Shown: one piece after another, positions 1,948 to 28,171 of the stretch
How the letters are laid out: the number at the start of each line of letters is the position of its first letter
How positions within the stretch are numbered: position 1 is the first letter of the stretch
Assembly (NCBI GenBank): GCA_965112155.1
Contig: OZ218107.1
Origin: Podarcis liolepis
Lineage: Eukaryota
DNA length: 64,000 bases
Reading direction: 5' to 3' (one strand)
The notes under the pieces: generated by a model
The model's database searches: none
What the model was told of the DNA's origin: nothing
Seen by the model: only the letters and a program-made list of their open reading frames with translations
Program-made: the position numbers and the translations under genes

Positions 1948-2022
1948 ATACTTCATGAATACTTATTCATGAATAATACTTCATGAATACTTATTCATGA
2001 ATAATACTTCTTGAATACTTAT
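1948..2022. repeat. 28-bp tandem repeat, about 2.7 copies
   Basis: Unit ATACTTCATGAATACTTATTCATGAATA at 1948-1975 and 1976-2003, partial third copy; contains the palindrome TATTCATGAATA. Confidence 0.9.
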
Positions 2023-2263
2023 AAACAAAAACCTGAGGTTTCTGTGCAATCCCAAGTATGGGCTTTCTGCCTCTTCAGGACAGTGTCTGGAACCTTCTAT
2101 TAGGAAAATCTGGTGCCCAGCCTGCCCTCTGGAGATAGTGTGCATGCCCTCATTGGGTGGGATCTGTGCTTCTGCTGCTTTTGTAGCAGCTTTTGAAACT
2201 TTGCTTTAAAGTGTCTTATTTCTTGGATACCTGTAAGCAACCTGCGTTCCCCTCTCTTTTCAG

Positions 2264-2352
2264 TTGGAGTTTTCACCACAGACTTTATGTTGCTATGGCA
2301 AACAGTTATGCACAATCCCACGAGATGCTACATATTACAGTTACCAAAACAG
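2264..2352 (+). CDS. EP300: EP300 exon 19 equivalent, N-terminal half of RING
   Basis: tttcag|TTG GAG TTT TCA...CAA AAC AG|gtaag; LEFSPQTLCCYGKQLCTIPRDATYYSYQN; 89 nt; not shown in this frame in the ORF track. Confidence 0.97.
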
Positions 2353-4463
2353 GTAAGAAAATGCTTGGGCACAACATTGCACCTGCTGTGAAAAATTATA
2401 TTACATATAGGCAGGCATGCAGTTATATTTATAGCATACTCAGCAGATTACTTCCCATGCAAGCCAAGTGCCTTGTTGCATCAATTGACTTTTTCTTCCT
2501 GTTTCAGAAATTAGGATGTTAATATAAACTCTCCATATGCTTTAGATAAGTTCAAAGCTTCTGCAGTAAAGCCATCATTTTTTCCTATGTATGAAACAGT
2601 GCACAGAAAAGCATGCATGTTTGCATCTTGAGTTCACTGCATTTAACATTCAGTCTTGTCCTAAGGGAGACATATTTCCTGTTTTAGATCACAGTTATTT
2701 CAACCAAAGCTGTAGTTGTAAAGCTGTGTTTTGTTTGAGCTGCGTGAAAAGCAGGGTGCCTGCAAGGTCAGAGAGGGGCTGACTTGACTCTGCCATGGCC
2801 TCTTACAGTCTCTCACTCTCAGCTAGAATTTCTATGCTAGTAGCACTCCTGTGTGTGTGCTTGGGATCTCTTAACTATTGAGGCATAACTGTCAAGTGTT
2901 CCTGAGTATGTACTTTTGTTTAAGAAGGTAAATCTTGCACTGCATCAGACCAAGATTTACCTGGTCCGGCATCTTTTATGGGAATTTCAATAAACCAGCA
3001 ACTTCTCTGTACTCCACTGGACCTGCAGCCTTCAGTTTGTTCTCGATAGCCCTTTTCTGAAGTGGAAATTAACTGAGGAGTGAACTCTGGAGTTGTTTGA
3101 TTAAATAAGCATCACCGTGCATCTTAATTTTACCACCTGCACCTGCATGATGATGGCAGTCTTTCTGAAGACTTGCTTTCTGTGATAGCACGGGTCTATG
3201 TTCTGCTTTGGGGTCGGAAAACATCTGATAGGAAAAACTGTGTTTGGAGCTCTTCTAAGGGAGGAAAGAAAACTGAGAACACAACTTTTTCACGTTTTTT
3301 GTCAGGAGTATTGCTGCAAATCATGCTTTGGGGGGGGGTTGCTGAAGTAGACAACTAGTTCTTTAACAAATCTAAAGCTAAGCTTTCTATAACTTTACAG
3401 CTTCATGCCATAAGTCATTTTTATCACAAATGCCAACTTGAGTAAAGAAATCTTCATATGTATACATATGAGCTGGGATCCAAAGAACTGCTGTAGGTGT
3501 GTACATGGGCTAGGGCATTGCTACTGGATTTTTTTACCTTTAATCAGCAGACTGTCATGCCATATCACAGCTTTTGAAATTAAGAGGAGTTTCAAAAACA
3601 ATGTGGAATGGAAGGTTGCTGTCCAAAACATGCAAGGCAAAGCCCCCCCCCCAAGCAGATAACACTAAGTGGTTCTTTGGACACTGGTCTTTTGAATGTC
3701 CAAATCAATGTTTGTCATTGTATCAGTGTAATAAATAAACTAACCTGTTATAGATAGGAAACATAGGTGGTGAAGAAGTGATCCGTTCCTTAGCAATTAC
3801 ATTTCCTCTAGTGTTGGTTTTGCTTTGCTTTATAATACTGTCACAGTTTTGTTTTTTGTTTTTGTTTCTTTTTGTTGTATGTTTGCACTCAAATTAACTT
3901 GCTTAGCAATGGAAAGGCTGCAGTTTCTGTGCACTCTTGCGGGTAAAAAAACATCTTGAGTAAAGCATTCAACATTAATTTAGATGAAGATGGAATCCTT
4001 TTAATATGTCAATTATACATCAATTTGGAGGCATGGAACATCAGTACGTCACATATTAAGAACATACATATGCATGGCTGATTGTCAGATGCCTTAAAGC
4101 ACCTGTCATTTTGGCAGATCATGAACAATTGCATAGAAATTGTTTTGGGGATGGTTACTGCTGCTTTAAACAGATGTTGCAAACAAAAAATGCTTTGAGG
4201 GGAAGGACTGGCCTGTCAACATTTGAGCATTCTCAAGATGGATTGTTTTCACCCCTTTCCAGCCCTCTCCTGGCAGATGTTCTTGTGAAAAGAGTTGCTA
4301 CCCTGATGCAGATGTCAGAGCAGCAATTGCTCTTACCCTTTCTTCATTTTGATTCTCTGCTTTATTGTAGCATTGATTATTGAAATGAGGAGGGCATGGG
4401 CATACTAAAATGGAATACTCTTTTTATTTGCTATAATTTGCTGCTTGTGATCCCATTTGAGAG

Positions 4464-4812
4464 ATTTAATGCTAATCTGTGCTTTGCCTTGGCTTTCTGC
4501 TTTGTGTTGTCCTGTCTTGCTTCTGTGTTTTTGTTTTTCGTCCTGCAAATCCCTATTTCTTTGTTCGTGTGTGTGTGTTGTTTTTTTATTTCTCCTTCAT
4601 GCTTGTCGTTGTCTGCACTTGGCTTTGATTGCAAAAAAACCAACCCAAACAAAAAAACAAAACCAAACACAAACTCTGGGTCCCATAAATCTTCATCATT
4701 GAATGTCCCTGTCGCCGTTGATGACCTGCTCTCTGCTCCCGCCCCCCTCCTTGGCCTGCTGTGATTGGTGGCTCCGTTGCTTGGCTTGGGCTGTGTTGTG
4801 TGGACGGAACAG
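4464..4812 (+). promoter_or_regulatory. Extended AG-exclusion zone with candidate distant branch point (GCTAAT 4471-4476) and long pyrimidine/UG-rich tract
   Basis: No AG dinucleotide from 4464 to 4810; CTAAT branch motif at the 5' edge followed by a U-rich tract. Confidence 0.8.
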
Positions 4813-4842
4813 TTCACCCAAATATGGCCTTCTTGCCGACAG
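4813..4842 (+). CDS. EP300: Putative alternative 30-nt 5' extension of EP300 exon 20 (adds SSPKYGLLAD)
   Basis: First AG after the AG-free zone (aacag|T TCA CCC AAA TAT GGC CTT CTT GCC GAC AG); in frame with exons 19 and 20, no stop. Confidence 0.7.
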
Positions 4843-4923
4843 GTATCATTTCTGTGAGAAGTGCTTCAATGAAATCCAAGGAGAGAGCGTTTCTTTGGGG
4901 GACGACCCATCACAGCCTCAAAC
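4843..4923 (+). CDS. EP300: EP300 exon 20 equivalent, C-terminal half of RING
   Basis: gacag|G TAT CAT TTC...CAA AC|gtgagt; RYHFCEKCFNEIQGESVSLGDDPSQPQT; 81 nt. Confidence 0.97.
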
Positions 4924-5348
4924 GTGAGTAGCTATCTCCTTTCTAATTATTTTTAAATTTCTTACAACATTTATCATAGCATTAGTCAATCTCATACTCT
5001 AAATACTATTAAACAATTTACATCAAATTTATGGTAAAATTCCTTATTTAATGCTGAGGCCTTGTGCAATTATGGGAGGAACAGAGGACAGGAATATTAT
5101 TTGAAAACAAGACAAATCTTATGTTTCAGAATGAGCTTTAGCTTTTAAAACACTTTCATATTTTGGTGAGAATATGAAAAACCACTTTTGAAAAGTAGAA
5201 GCATTATTCCAGTTTATATGTTAGATTTAATAAAGACCTAATGTTTAAGAATTCCAGTCCCACCTGAGCCTGCAAATTTTTTTGTTGCTTCTGCTTGTAG
5301 AAAAGAGACTTCACAGCTTGCTTTAACTTTTAACTATTTTGTGCATGT

Positions 5349-22104: not shown

Positions 22105-24345
22105 GATTATGACTTATGTATCACCTGCTATAACTCTAAAAACCATGAGCACAAGATGGAGAAACTGGGCCTTGGTATTGACGATGAAAGCAACAACCAA
22201 CAGACAGCCACTACGCAGAGTCCTGGTGATTCACGTCGCCTGAGCATCCAGCGCTGCATCCAGTCTTTGGTCCATGCCTGCCAGTGCCGCAATGCCAACT
22301 GCTCATTGCCGTCTTGTCAGAAGATGAAGAGGGTCGTCCAGCACACCAAAGGTTGCAAGCGCAAAACCAATGGAGGGTGCCCAATTTGCAAGCAGCTCAT
22401 TGCTCTTTGCTGCTACCATGCTAAGCACTGCCAGGAGAACAAGTGCCCAGTGCCCTTTTGCCTCAACATCAAACACAAGCTTCGTCAGCAGCAGCTTCAG
22501 CACCGCCTGCAGCAGGCCCAGATGCTCCGGAGGAGGGTGGCAAGCATGCAGAGGACCGGCATAGTAGGCCAGCAGCAAGGGTTGCCCTCGCCAACACCAG
22601 CCACACCAACAACTCCGACAGGCCAGCAGCCACCAACTCCTCAGACCCCACAGCCGCAGCCTCCACCCCAGCATGCCTCGCAGCCACAACCCGTACCTCC
22701 CAATAACATGCCTCCATATAGCATGTCAAGAACTCAGCCTCCTGGTGCTGTCTCCCAAGGCAAGGCAGGTGGCCAGGTAACTCCTCCAACAACTCCTCAG
22801 GCTACTCAGCCACCTATGCCGGGGCCCCCTGCAGCTGCTGTGGAAATAGCCATGCAGATCCAGCGAGTAGCTGACCACCAGCGGCAGATGGCCCATCCAA
22901 TTTTCCAGAGGCCAATTCAACACCAGATGCCCCAGATGAATCAAATACAGCCTATGAGTGTAACACCCCCTCAGATGGCCAGAGGTCCCGGGGGCCATAT
23001 AGATCAAGGGATGGGACCATCAGGAATTCAGCAGCAGCCCGCATGGGCCCAGGGAGGCTTGCCTCAACCTCAGCAGCTGCAGCCAGGAATGCAGAGACCA
23101 ATGATGTCAATGGGCCAGGCTGGGCAGCAGATGAGTATGTCACCGCAGCAGCCAGGAATGGGTCAGGTCCCTGGCGCTGCTCCGTCAAAGCAAAGCTCTG
23201 TGCCCCAGGCAGCCTTACAAAACCTGCTGCGGACTCTCAGGTCCCCCAGCTCTCCCATGCAGCAGCAGCAGGTGCTTAACATCCTGCACTCCAACCCTCA
23301 GCTGTTAGCTGCTTTCATCAAGCAGAGGGCTGCCAAGTATGTTGGGAACCAGAATCCACAGGGCATGCCGGGACAGCCCGGAATGCCTCAAGGGCAACCA
23401 GGGATGCAGCAGCAGGCCATGCCAGGACAGCAAGGTGTGCATCCCAATCAAGGCATGCAAAATATGAATCCGATGCAAGCAGGCGTCCAGAGGCCCAGCA
23501 TGCCCCAGCAGTCGCCACCCCAGCAGCCACCACCCCAGCAGGCCATGGGCGGGATGAATCCTCAGGCACAGCAAATGAACATGAATCCTGCAGCAACCAT
23601 GTCTCCCCAGTTTCGGGAAATCCTAATGAGACGGCAGCTGATGGAGCAGCAGCGTCAGGGAGCAGGACCAGGGCTGGGGCCTGGCATGGCCAACCATAAT
23701 CAGTTCCAGCAGCCCCAGGGAGTTGGGTACTCTCAGCAGCAGCAGCAGCAGCAGCAACAACAACAACAGCAGCGGATGCAGCATCACATGCAGCAAATGC
23801 AACAAGGGAATATGGGACAAATGAGCCAGCTTCCACAAGCAATGAGTGCAGAGACGGGATCCAGTTTGCAGCAGGTGTTCCAGCAGAGGCTACTTCAGCA
23901 GCAGATGGGATCACCAGCTCAGCCCAATCCTATGAGTCCCCAACAGCACATGCTCCCTAGCCAGGCCCAGTCCCCACACTTACAAGGCCAGCAGATTCCG
24001 TCATCGCTCACCAATCAAGTGCGTTCTCCACAGCCTGTCCCTTCACCACGTCCCCAGTCCCAGCCACCCCACTCCAGTCCGTCCCCTAGGATGCAGCCAC
24101 AACCTTCTCCACATCACGTCTCCCCGCAGACCAGCTCCCCTCATCCAGGACTGGTAGCTGCCCAGGCTAACCCCATGGATCAAGGGCACTTTGCCAGCCC
24201 GGACCAGAGTGCAATGCTTTCTCAGCTTGCTAGCAATCCAGGCATGGCAGGCCTCCATGGTGCAAGTGCCACAGAACTGGGACTCGGCTCAGATAATTCA
24301 GACTTGAATTCAAACCTTTCACAGAGTACACTAGACATACACTAA
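22105..24345 (+). CDS. EP300: EP300 terminal exon coding part (ZZ end, TAZ2, Q/P-rich region, NCBD)
   Basis: tttag|GAT TAT GAC TTA TGT; ends [16 protein letters not shown], the p300-type C-terminus rather than CBP. Confidence 0.98.
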
Positions 24346-25470
24346 GACACACTGTAGCATTTTGGGAGCAAAAAAAAAACTTATTTTCTCAAGACTTTTT
24401 GTACTGAAGACAATTTTTTTTGAATCTTTCTTAGCAGAACATTTTTCCCTGGAATACATCTGAACTCTGCAGCAGTAGTTTGTGGTTTTAAAAATGAGAA
24501 ACCAACAAAATGAACCTGAGGGACAATAGAATACAAAGAAAATATATTTTTGTTATGGCTGGGGTCATAACCAGTCCTTTTACTTGTTTTTGTTTTCCCT
24601 TCGCGTGCGTTGGGGAGGTGCTTGGGAGGGGATAGTTATTTGGCTGCTGACCAAATGGCTTCCTTCTCTAGCCTCCAATAGGTTTTATTTTTTTTTTAAA
24701 TTAATGAAAATATGTAATATTGATAGTTATAATTTACTGAGGCAGATGGTTAACTTTTTTCCCTATTCTGGTTTTTCTCATGCCTACTGCAAAAAAGAAA
24801 AAAAGAAAAACAGAAAAAACAGAACATTTCCTAAAACTGGAGGACAAAAAGGGTGAATGTTGCTTTAAAATACAGTGCATATATATAAATATATAAAAAT
24901 ATATATTAAAGATAAATACCAATTTTTCCTCTTTGGTTGGAAAGATGTCAATTCTTTTAAAAACTGTAAAAATTATTAAGTAACCCAGTCTCCCTCCTGA
25001 AGTCTACTTTTGTCCTCCAAGAATTTTCTATACCAGAGTCTGAGCTTAAACTTCAAGTATTAAAATTTGTACATGTAGAGAGAAGACAACTTTTTGCAAA
25101 TACACGGGGCAGCTGCCAAATGGATGTAGTATATATATTGTGGTTTTGTTTTCTTGAAAGAATTTTTTTCGTTATTTTTACATCTAACAAAGGAAAAAAT
25201 AAAGAGGGTAAGAAACTATTCCAAGGGTATAATTTTAACCTGAGAGTAAATCCCTGGGGTTTCTTCTTTATGCTTGCTTTCTCTATCCCTCCCCTCCCAT
25301 TTCCTCCTCTTCCATTTTCTGTAAAACTTGAAAATAGAAAGCAAAAAACCCTCAAATGTTGTAAATCATGCAATTAAAGTTGATTACTTATAAATATGAA
25401 CTTTCGATCACTGTATAGACTGTTAATTGATTTCTTATTACCTATTGTTAAATAAACTGTGTGAGACAGA
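24346..25470 (+). other. EP300: EP300 3'UTR with seed matches for miR-150 (TTGGGAG 24362), miR-22 (GGCAGCT 25108) and miR-132/212 (8mer GACTGTTA 25418-25425)
   Basis: AU-rich UTR; seed complements read directly; p300 is a reported miR-132 target in mammals, and function here is inferred. Confidence 0.75.
25451..25456 (+). terminator. EP300 poly(A) signal
   Basis: AATAAA in CCTATTGTTAAATAAACTGTGTGAGACAG, followed by a U-rich downstream tract. Confidence 0.85.
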
Positions 25471-28171
25471 CTGATTTTTTTATGCTTCCCTTCTTCTTTT
25501 CCCCTTCAATTGGTGCTTATTTTAAACTGGGGAAAGAAGATGGTATGCTTTTGCAAAACAAAAAACTACGGCGATCAATTTGATGTATAGTAACATACCA
25601 TTATGTGTGTTTTTGAAACATGCGTATTTTGGGCTGTAATGAAGATGATCAATGTCCATTTTGCTGTGACACTATATTCGCTTCTACTTGTGCTATGGAA
25701 ACTTTTCTTCATATCTAGGTGGGATGCTGTCTGCATATTTGATCTGGACAGCACTTGATCCTCAAAAGAACCTCCAGAGTCCAGAATACTGCCCAGGGTT
25801 TAACTATCGGAACAGAAGTGTCAAGACACCATTCCACAATTCAGTGGGTTGGCATGCAAGGCGACCTGAGGAATTTGTGGTGATTGCAGGCAAATTATAA
25901 GCATGGCAGTCTGCTCTGACACCAGCAGTTCTAATTTAATTAGATGAGTGCTGTGAAGACTGAGCCTCCCTCTATAAATGAGTGCCATCCAGGGGCAGCA
26001 ATTTGGTGGTCCGATTTTGGTCATGCCCACAAGCTTAGATGGAGAAATAGTTAGCTACACATACAGTGTTTTGTGTAGTTAACATTTAACTACTGTAGAT
26101 GCATCTTTGTTTCTGCTGAAGCGGATGGTCCTGAGAGTTTGAGGAAGGTTTTGCATTATTAAGTACTATAGAATTCCTGTCAGTTTGGTGCTTATCTGAG
26201 CTACTACATACAAGGTCTTCTAAATGTTTCTCCGCCTGTTATAGCCCTTTCTGGATTGGCTTAGTTTCAAAGTCAGGCTCTAGCCTTAGCCCTGACAAAC
26301 TCTATTTTAGAACAGTAAATACACAGGGCAATGCAGGCTGGATGGAAAGTACAGTGAAAGAAGTAAAATTTAATACATATTATCACAGATGATAAAACTC
26401 CAGGGTAATGTACAATTATTTGTGTTGCAAAAATACAATAAAAGTGGCTCTTAGAAAATTGTTGTAGGTAATAACGTTGCCAGAGGCTTTAGTTTTAGGA
26501 TGAACTCTGCATCTACAGTCCTATGAGTATTTAGAGTGTTTCCTGTCTGGGTGAAGGTGCAAAGTTGCAATGCGCTCAGTGTGATAAATTTGAAATTGTA
26601 GTTCTTCAGTAGATTTTGGAGATACAAAATTCCATTTTTAAATTGCAATTGTTGATGACACATCACCAGCTACAGCTTTTATTTTAATCTTCTATGAATT
26701 TTCATAATCATTGCGTTTTTGTACTGTCACTCTATGCATCATTCTTTGTCTCCTTGTTAGGTTGTTTTAAATTTATTAGCTTAAATCCTTTTCCCACAAG
26801 CATGCTCACACACATACATATATCGCACACATACATGTAAAATGAAATTGCTTTCCAGTTCTTGAGCCAAATGCTCATTCAAAACTGATGAATTAGAACT
26901 AACACTCACTTACAGCATTTATAACAGATGCTTGCAAACAAAATATTAAGTATAATGAAATCCAGCCAGGATTTTATAAAAACAGTGAGCAGATTTCTGC
27001 GTAAGAATTGAAGCGCAGAGTAAAATGACAGAGAAACACAGTGTCCCTAAAGCCATATAGCAGCTCCACAGTTCAGTGGATTGAAAAAGATCCCTCTTAA
27101 TTTTAGGATAGAAATTACATCAAGTTTCTATAGACTGACTTGCCTCATCCTTTCTTTTAAAAAAAGGGGGTGAGTTAATCTGACACTCAGTGCATTCTTC
27201 GGTAGCGAACTTGCAGTGCCTTTACAGGAAATAAGAGCTTACAGCTCTGCAAATCAGTGGAGGTGTACTGCCATTAAAAGATACTTTGGGTCTAAATCTT
27301 ATTAAAACAGAAAATTCTCATATCTATCTGGTATGCAGATGGGTCTAGCTTTCACAACATGCAGCTTGTCATGTTTTATTTGTAATCTGCAATGATAAAC
27401 ACTATCCCAGAATTTAAAATGTTGTGTCCTGTAGTTAGGCAGAATGAGGTTACTATCTCTTAGGCAGAAAAGGGTGAAGAAGTAGGAAGGTGATTACTAA
27501 ATGTGAAGTTCTTTCTTGGGGGAAAACCTAAGCAAAGCCAGAAGCCCACTCCCTGTCTCCAGTGTGCACCTCTGACTGACTTCAGCTCTCTTCTTGCCAT
27601 GCAGAAATATAAAGTGCATTTTCCTTCTCTTCTGCAATAATGTCAGGAATGCAACTTCCCTACCTCAGAAATGCATATGCTTCCACCATAGACATCATCT
27701 TGGTCTACAAGCCATTTGACCATACCAAGACTGTTCTTTTCTAATTTTATTTCCTTCAACTATTAGCCCCCACAAGTATGGCCAATGGGCAGGGATGATG
27801 GGAGCTGTAGTTTAGCAACAGCTGGAGGGCCAGAAGGTCCTTTCACCTAGGCTGCAAGCTTGGAAATCTTGAAATTATTCTGCAATGCCTCATCCATGAC
27901 AGCAACACTCAGAGAAGCCATCATTAAAAGAAAAAAGGCAAACCTACATTGGAGATTGAACTATAGGTGGTTTCTGTAGCAATAACTTCAAATGTTAAAA
28001 ATATATGAAACAGGCTTTTCCCTAACCATCCAGCCTGCCTTAATTCTCGTGCTTTTGCTAGTTACCATGAGCAAAATAACCACAGCTTCTAATCTTGAAT
28101 TCTCATTGTGTACAAGAATGCAAAATCCATAATAGGGATATCATAAATTCTCATATGTATGAAAATTATTG

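Follow-up and report, generated by a model that had tools for sequence, protein, structure and literature searches.

Tandem in-frame acceptors conserved between EP300 and CREBBP, and a probable minor isoform with ten extra residues in the RING domain

Introduction

Two CAG trinucleotides in the same reading frame precede an exon of the p300 RING domain in the lizard Podarcis liolepis: are both of them acceptors, so that the RING exists with and without a ten-residue insert, and what would decide between the two? Both p300 and CBP act as central coactivators, and their importance extends to disease genetics and to drug targeting. The DNA analysed here (the window) is a stretch of 64,000 nt that holds the 3′ two-thirds of EP300 (G000:C11), and its exon-by-exon best matches are squamate p300 proteins. 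The CREBBP paralogue occupies a separate locus of G000 (G000:C15), where both AGs are also present. A metagenome scan returned eight further loci, of which L011–L013 were excluded (40–50% identity, unrelated context). The seven DNA loci compared below are the window, lizard CREBBP and L006 to L010. By similarity, we label L006 as amniote-type EP300, L008 as amniote-type CREBBP, and L007 and L009 as p300 loci whose upstream frames resemble fish-type records; L010 is a divergent, unplaced CBP-like gene with the insert SKQSNGLLCD.

Two acceptors in front of one exon

The exons and acceptors concerned lie in the window as follows.

2264–2352, plus strand: upstream exon, equivalent to human exon 19; ends AAC AG, followed by a GT donor at 2353 and a phase-2 intron
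4810–4812, plus strand: upstream CAG acceptor of the long form; its AG is present in seven of seven loci
4813–4842, plus strand: optional 30-nt segment encoding SSPKYGLLAD
4840–4842, plus strand: downstream CAG acceptor of the canonical short form, equal to human EP300 c.3591-1
4843–4923, plus strand: constitutive exon part, 81 nt (RYHFCEKC...PQT), with a GT donor at 4924

The available text of PMC12674597 numbers the human equivalent of the upstream exon as exon 19 and equates c.3604 with Glu1202, which places the downstream CAG at c.3591-1. A preliminary description of this DNA had reported CAGs at 4812 and 4842, exactly 30 nt apart, in frame and without a stop, and this is confirmed for both readings: splicing from the donor after 2352 yields YYSYQN-SSPKYGLLAD-RYHFCEKC or YYSYQN-RYHFCEKC, each free of stops. 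One donor is common to both AGs and the frame is kept, as seen in the window and in L006. A separate 30-nt microexon was considered and rejected: the segment is contiguous with the exon in all seven loci (none of them insect), and the insert was spliced straight to the next exon in none of 492 proteins.

Directly 5′ of the upstream CAG the pyrimidine tract is missing. A predicted branch A lies at 4816 (TTCAC), inside the 30 nt and 26 nt before 4842, and the pyrimidine tract of the short form, at 4828–4837, is likewise inside the optional segment. Judged by the order of these motifs, TTCAC, pyrimidine run and CAG would together make the 30 nt a full ordinary acceptor for the short form.

Elsewhere in this part of the gene, two in-frame AGs lie 6 nt apart at the acceptor of the upstream exon (2263 and 2269; window 2261–2269), and the intron 5′ of that exon contains a tandem repeat (window 1948–2022; 28-nt unit, 2.7 copies, 97% matches). 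No RNA run covering window 23000–26000 was found among the indexed runs.

An AG-free zone upstream of the first acceptor

The intron in front of the upstream CAG has the following elements.

4464–4810, plus strand: AG-free zone, 349 nt from AG to AG (4463 to 4812)
4471–4492, plus strand: distal conserved element of 22 nt, with a predicted branch A4475 (CTAAT)
4480–4619, plus strand: pyrimidine- and UG-rich tract 3′ of the distal element, with 13–17 pyrimidines per 20 nt
4762–4775, plus strand: second conserved intron block, TGATTGGTGGCTCC, shared with CREBBP by alignment

The AG-free zone is three times as long as the next longest AG gap on the plus strand of the window (115 nt), and the AG-free stretch at 14 other EP300 acceptors measures 17–67 nt. 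Shuffling the zone gave no AG-free sequence in 20,000 trials, with 11.7 AGs expected. In the six other loci the corresponding zone spans 248–416 nt (one is open-ended at 353), and 0–10 of 5,000 shuffles were AG-free; the 268-nt zone of lizard CREBBP is the longest in 20 kb. The upstream CAG is thus the first AG after a distal branch-point-like element, as had been proposed, the branch itself being a prediction. Both marks of an intron with a distant branch point are found here, namely an AG-free zone well over 100 nt and, at its 5′ end, a branch motif with a pyrimidine tract.

A4475 lies 337 nt before the upstream AG and 12 nt behind the first AG of the zone. The exact 22-nt element occurs in four of the seven loci (the window, L006, the CREBBP locus L008 and the fish-type p300 locus L009), at 236–338 nt from the upstream AG, and is single-copy in G000; it is missing from L007 and L010. 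Lizard CREBBP (L002:1255-1300, G000:C15) has lost the CTAAT that L008 keeps, yet retains its AG-free zone and shares with L008 a CTGAC motif about 110 nt before the upstream AG, so that more than one upstream branch site may serve. From its sequence, A4764 in the TGATTGGTGGCTCC block is a possible intermediate branch site.

Several other explanations for the zone were tried. An ATG overlaps the distal element, and a hidden upstream reading frame starting from it was rejected: among the four loci with the element the frame is open to it in one and the ATG is out of frame in two, with open upstream lengths of 2–120 codons. An RNA structure bridging branch point and AG was also set aside, as the fold of 4455–4860 is no better than that of shuffled sequences (z 0.38; 65 of 100 as good). 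The motifs YGCY, TGC, TGTG and TCTT show no excess in the zone over dinucleotide shuffles (694, 901, 149 and 861 of 1,000, respectively).

Two further observations concern the same region. An A/C-rich, G-free spacer (window 4632–4673) lies within the zone and is present in L006 and in neither CREBBP locus. About 46 short proteins (P0001–P0046; 79–361 residues) read from the intron end (window 4464–4812) into the exon; they look like gene-caller read-through artefacts, because their frames are not conserved and the region is AG-poor and hence TAG-free.

These elements suggest how the choice could be made. In the short form, U2 would bind at A4816, which is followed by its own pyrimidine tract and by a CAG at the usual distance; with a branch 3′ of the upstream AG, that AG would be excluded. 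Section 8 of PMC5378181 associates use of a downstream AG with branch sites that are too near, or 3′ of, the upstream AG. In the long form, U2 would instead bind at the distal A4475, or at A4764, and the search for the second step would run through the AG-free zone to the first AG, at 4812. Only this distal route needs an AG-free zone, and conservation of the zone therefore speaks for selection on the long form or, at any rate, on distal branching. We regard this two-branch-point route, whose branch sites are predicted, as slightly favoured.

One human observation touches on the distal site. The 3′ splice site at chr16:3801807 is likely that of this CREBBP intron. A single lariat read places a branch at chr16:3802055, 246 nt before that splice site, at a C, without mutation and with quality 'UB' (PMC5378181, entry in Table S1). 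Its eight letters are similar to sequence found 25 nt into the distal block of L008. Table S5 of PMC5378181 and the listed rows of File S2 of PMC5959240 hold no branch point for the EP300 intron, and the mouse branch-point table has no row assignable to it. In the three minigenes described in the accessible part of PMC5378181, distal branch points contribute modestly.

Constraint on the optional segment

Both AGs are present in all seven loci, which bears out the proposal of a conserved alternative acceptor. They are 30 nt apart throughout, and in none of the seven is the insert interrupted by a stop or an indel or the upstream AG lost. Within one genome, EP300 and CREBBP are identical at 29 of 30 positions of the insert versus 62 of 81 in the constitutive exon part. 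Across six loci (without L010), 3 of 10 third codon positions vary in the insert versus 19 of 27 in the constitutive part. A test for a codon-like pattern of substitution had been proposed, and the four variable sites of the insert in these six loci are three synonymous changes and one Tyr-to-Phe exchange. Sequence constraint on the 30 nt hence exceeds that on the constitutive exon part.

Two loci offer additional acceptors. L010 (L010:1403-1432) has both AGs and a 254-nt AG-free zone; a further AG, also in frame, lies 21 nt 5′ of its short acceptor and would give a seven-residue insert. A NAGNAG with AGs at −33 and −30 forms the upstream acceptor of L006 (L006:4030-4035) and could yield an 11-residue form.

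Conservation of the DNA alone is no proof that the peptide matters, because the 30 nt are constrained as a splice signal anyway. The long form might accordingly be a by-product: the distal element and the AG-free zone would slow the intron or control skipping of the 81-nt exon, the long form would be leakage, and the apparent conservation of the peptide would only reflect the signals of the normal acceptor (branch point, pyrimidine tract and AG) that make up the 30 nt. The overlap of splice signals and insert agrees with this reading. So do the available texts of PMC2991248 and PMC5378181, in which exons that are skipped or spliced late tend to have long AG-free zones and distal branch points.

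Long and short proteins in vertebrates and insects

Homologue searches and cluster look-ups gave 546 proteins among the matches listed. The 430 that could be scored comprise 226 short forms, 166 with ten extra residues, 20 with 11, 13 with eight and five others; these counts are not frequencies, because the queries favoured long forms. A hand tabulation found species with annotations of both forms in 12 of 13 vertebrate groups and in 8 of 10 insect groups, whereas horseshoe crab is short-only; the pair of Drosophila novamexicana, for instance, has 3126 aa (X1) and 3116 aa (X2). Long models include mammalian p300 (SSPQYGLLAD) and CBP (such as the orangutan CREBBP model PNJ16719.1) and extend to birds, turtles, a snake, frogs, sharks, skates and teleosts. 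Predicted vertebrate p300 isoforms with the insert, which the preliminary description had mentioned, do exist in databases. Isoform pairs that differ by exactly this segment recur in fish, sharks, a frog, bats and insects.

The long form looks minor, since all 11 scorable vertebrate multi-exon proteins derived from assemblies (of 21 examined) are short. This result would also fit leakage; assembled contigs drop minor variants, however, so that short-only assemblies suggest that the long form is minor rather than absent. Moth-like proteins from assemblies include long (P0386) as well as short forms (P0419 and P0420). In vertebrates, the long form is documented by automatic gene models, and such models can be transferred from one species to another.

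Three observations weigh against a mere by-product. In teleost models, Leu is exchanged for Ile or Val and so stays hydrophobic, while by codon logic a pyrimidine of the tract is necessarily altered. Insect versions keep S, Y-G-L and D in the same positions, and two beetle groups are long-only (15/15 and 10/10 scorable models). Finally, no exon-skipped form was found among 344 proteins with the upstream motif, a sample that is biased because the queries held the exon; exon-skipped or microexon-only products were likewise absent from a biased sample of 492 proteins. We consider the by-product reading unlikely, and a conserved in-frame acceptor pair in EP300 and CREBBP, giving a minor but selected RING isoform with ten added residues and probably decided by the choice of branch point, the probable one.

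At the same site, insects have SLKAYGLGSD, SLKEYGVASN or the eight-residue RGYGVSCD; a clam has eight residues (RSSTLLSD), an ostracod copy ten, and marine crustacean-like assemblies KNPTPSLFSD. The insect segments were compared as proteins, and insects may use a microexon in place of tandem AGs. The downstream AG is part of an Arg codon, and in the ladybird and marine-group long forms P0356, P0096 and P0115 this Arg is replaced by Lys, which would fit a loss of the short form there.

Since both forms are annotated in vertebrate and insect groups, the optional segment probably predates the protostome–deuterostome split. The alternative is that the vertebrate switch is real and independent of the invertebrate inserts, the hairpin turn at this intron tolerating insertions. 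It would account for the divergent crustacean-like and clam inserts and for chelicerates, Artemia, Orchesella and amphioxus, in which short models alone were seen; the proteins compared are moreover bilaterian, with the insects represented by proteins alone. Set against this, the short-only groups are thinly sampled, site and (mostly) length are the same, and beetle SLKAYGLGSD matches vertebrate SSPKYGLLAD at 5 of 10 positions, with S, Y-G-L and D in register. In addition, the insert begins with Ser or Arg and is followed by Arg in 169 of 185 long forms, as a phase-2 AG join demands. Independent origins therefore appear quite unlikely, and we retain a shared optional segment.

Which residues persist bears on what the insert might do. 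Variants in the insert are mostly conservative (L/I/V, Y/F, D/N, K/Q), and the motif that persists is [YF]-G-[LV]-x-[SA]-[DN]. The preliminary description had instead envisaged an RBFOX-controlled switch that adds an S-P-K phosphorylation or acetylation site and thereby tunes autoinhibition of the HAT domain. An autoinhibitory RING, S-P in nearly all vertebrate long forms and five TGCATG motifs near the exon are in keeping with that idea. The motifs do lie where they had been reported (2614, 3144, 4071, 5342 and 5650), but they are not enriched: TGCATG is at background density, with 37 sense versus 39 antisense occurrences in the window and 5 versus 4 in about 4 kb around the exon, and its positions are not common to the six other loci, two of which have no TGCATG at all. 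The S-P-K switch fares no better, as the Lys is Gln in all four mammalian p300 models counted and in salmonid p300, while in medaka it is Thr; the insect inserts carry S-L-K, S-M-K or R-G in place of S-P. With [YF]-G-[LV]-x-[SA]-[DN] kept and S-P-K not, the pattern is more suggestive of a packing contact than of a modification site, and the RBFOX and S-P-K reading is improbable.

Uniformly short vertebrate assemblies might suggest an annotation artefact, in which splicing never reaches the upstream AG and gene prediction has merely propagated the long models. This is very improbable given the recurrence of exact-segment isoform pairs from fish to insects, the long forms among assembly-derived invertebrate proteins and the conserved AG-free zone. 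On the basis of sequence anatomy, conservation and annotated isoform pairs, we are highly confident that the long isoform is real.

The insert in the RING domain

The insertion point had been placed between the two Cys pairs of the RING, and a predicted structure of a snake long-form RING-PHD-HAT module (54 sequences, mean pLDDT 68.8, pTM 0.65) agrees, with Cys24/Cys30 on one side and Cys58/Cys61 on the other. These two pairs reportedly bind one zinc (Delvecchio 2013). In the model the insert forms a turn between strands 37–42 and 54–58, with pLDDT values of 68 and 77 over residues 41–60, so the insert is predicted to extend a β-hairpin turn of the RING while leaving the strands intact. The model departs by ~7–19 Å rmsd from RING-containing p300 structures, which makes its RING-to-HAT orientation unreliable; because its domain arrangement differs from the solved cores, it gives neither the position of the loop with respect to the active site nor the contacts of the loop.

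All 16 distinct PDB sequences matching the exon align only from query residue 7, and the two PDB alignments shown and the cores checked are of the short form. None of the solved structures that match this exon thus seems to contain the long form.

The RING is autoinhibitory, and perturbing it activates p300 (accessible part of PMC9755262); an outward-rotated RING goes with substrate access (accessible part of PMC10352329). A longer loop could alter packing of the RING on the HAT domain, or its release, and the conserved hydrophobic Y-G-L would be the most plausible part of the loop to do so. That the loop affects HAT regulation is, in our estimate, possible, at somewhat less than even chances.

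Discussion

The class of mechanism is known, both for distant branch points and for alternative acceptors. Gooding reportedly described, in 2006, introns in which a distant branch point is followed by a long AG exclusion zone. NAGNAG tandem acceptors and neural microexons make small in-frame insertions into structured domains. Unlike NAGNAG sites, the EP300 AGs are spaced by 30 nt and not by 3, and unlike microexons the segment adjoins its exon directly, with no separate donor used in any of the proteins compared.

Long AG exclusion zones with a distant branch point are documented for MBNL1 exons 6 and 9, CLK1/CLK3 exon 4 and HTR4 (available text of PMC2991248). The EP300 intron resembles these in its AG-free length (250–400 nt), the branch-like motif at the 5′ end, the long pyrimidine tract and deep intron conservation. 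Those zones mostly govern skipping of a cassette exon, whereas the EP300 zone ends at an AG that extends a constitutive exon in frame, and the EP300 distal branch site is a predicted one. There is also a likeness to the alternative 3′ splice sites set by branch points in section 8 of PMC5378181, in that a proximal branch at or behind the upstream AG would force use of the downstream AG; unlike in the cases of that section, the competing site in EP300 is ~340 nt away and conserved between two paralogues.

RefSeq, UniRef and GenBank models of EP300, CREBBP and nejire already hold exactly this segment as an isoform difference (for example, the pairs XP_030564506.1/XP_030564507.1 and XP_073429091.1/XP_073429093.1 and the single long PNJ16719.1), and they are silent on regulation, mechanism, cross-phylum homology and function. 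The p300/CBP cores 4BHW, 6GYR, 5U7G and 8HAG comprise the same RING-PHD-HAT core, but are short where checked. We found no description of the isoform in the full-text literature, mostly open-access journals, and the EP300 instance, its sharing by both paralogues and the insect match appear to be undescribed.

A broader scenario can be offered tentatively, and we hold it to be rather doubtful as a whole: a regulated RING loop that arose before the protostome–deuterostome split, controlled by competition between distal and proximal branch sites, would have become fixed in some beetles while staying optional in many other insects and in vertebrates, and would tune activation of the acetyltransferase by tissue, with a structural record that covers the short form only.

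A human allele bears on the acceptor pair. In a patient with Rubinstein–Taybi syndrome, EP300 c.3591-2A>G was scored as PVS1 (null) without an RNA test, according to the available text of PMC12674597. The substitution removes exactly the downstream AG (window 4840–4842). If the human layout matches that of the lizard, its likely outcomes include the form with ten extra residues or loss of the 81-nt exon, both in frame, and the allele may then be a natural test of the long isoform. Should the Gln of the mammalian p300 insert be encoded by CAG, its codon would supply a third AG, out of frame. An optional RING loop in both paralogues, mirrored in insects, would offer a direct test of how the brake on these acetyltransferases is naturally tuned.
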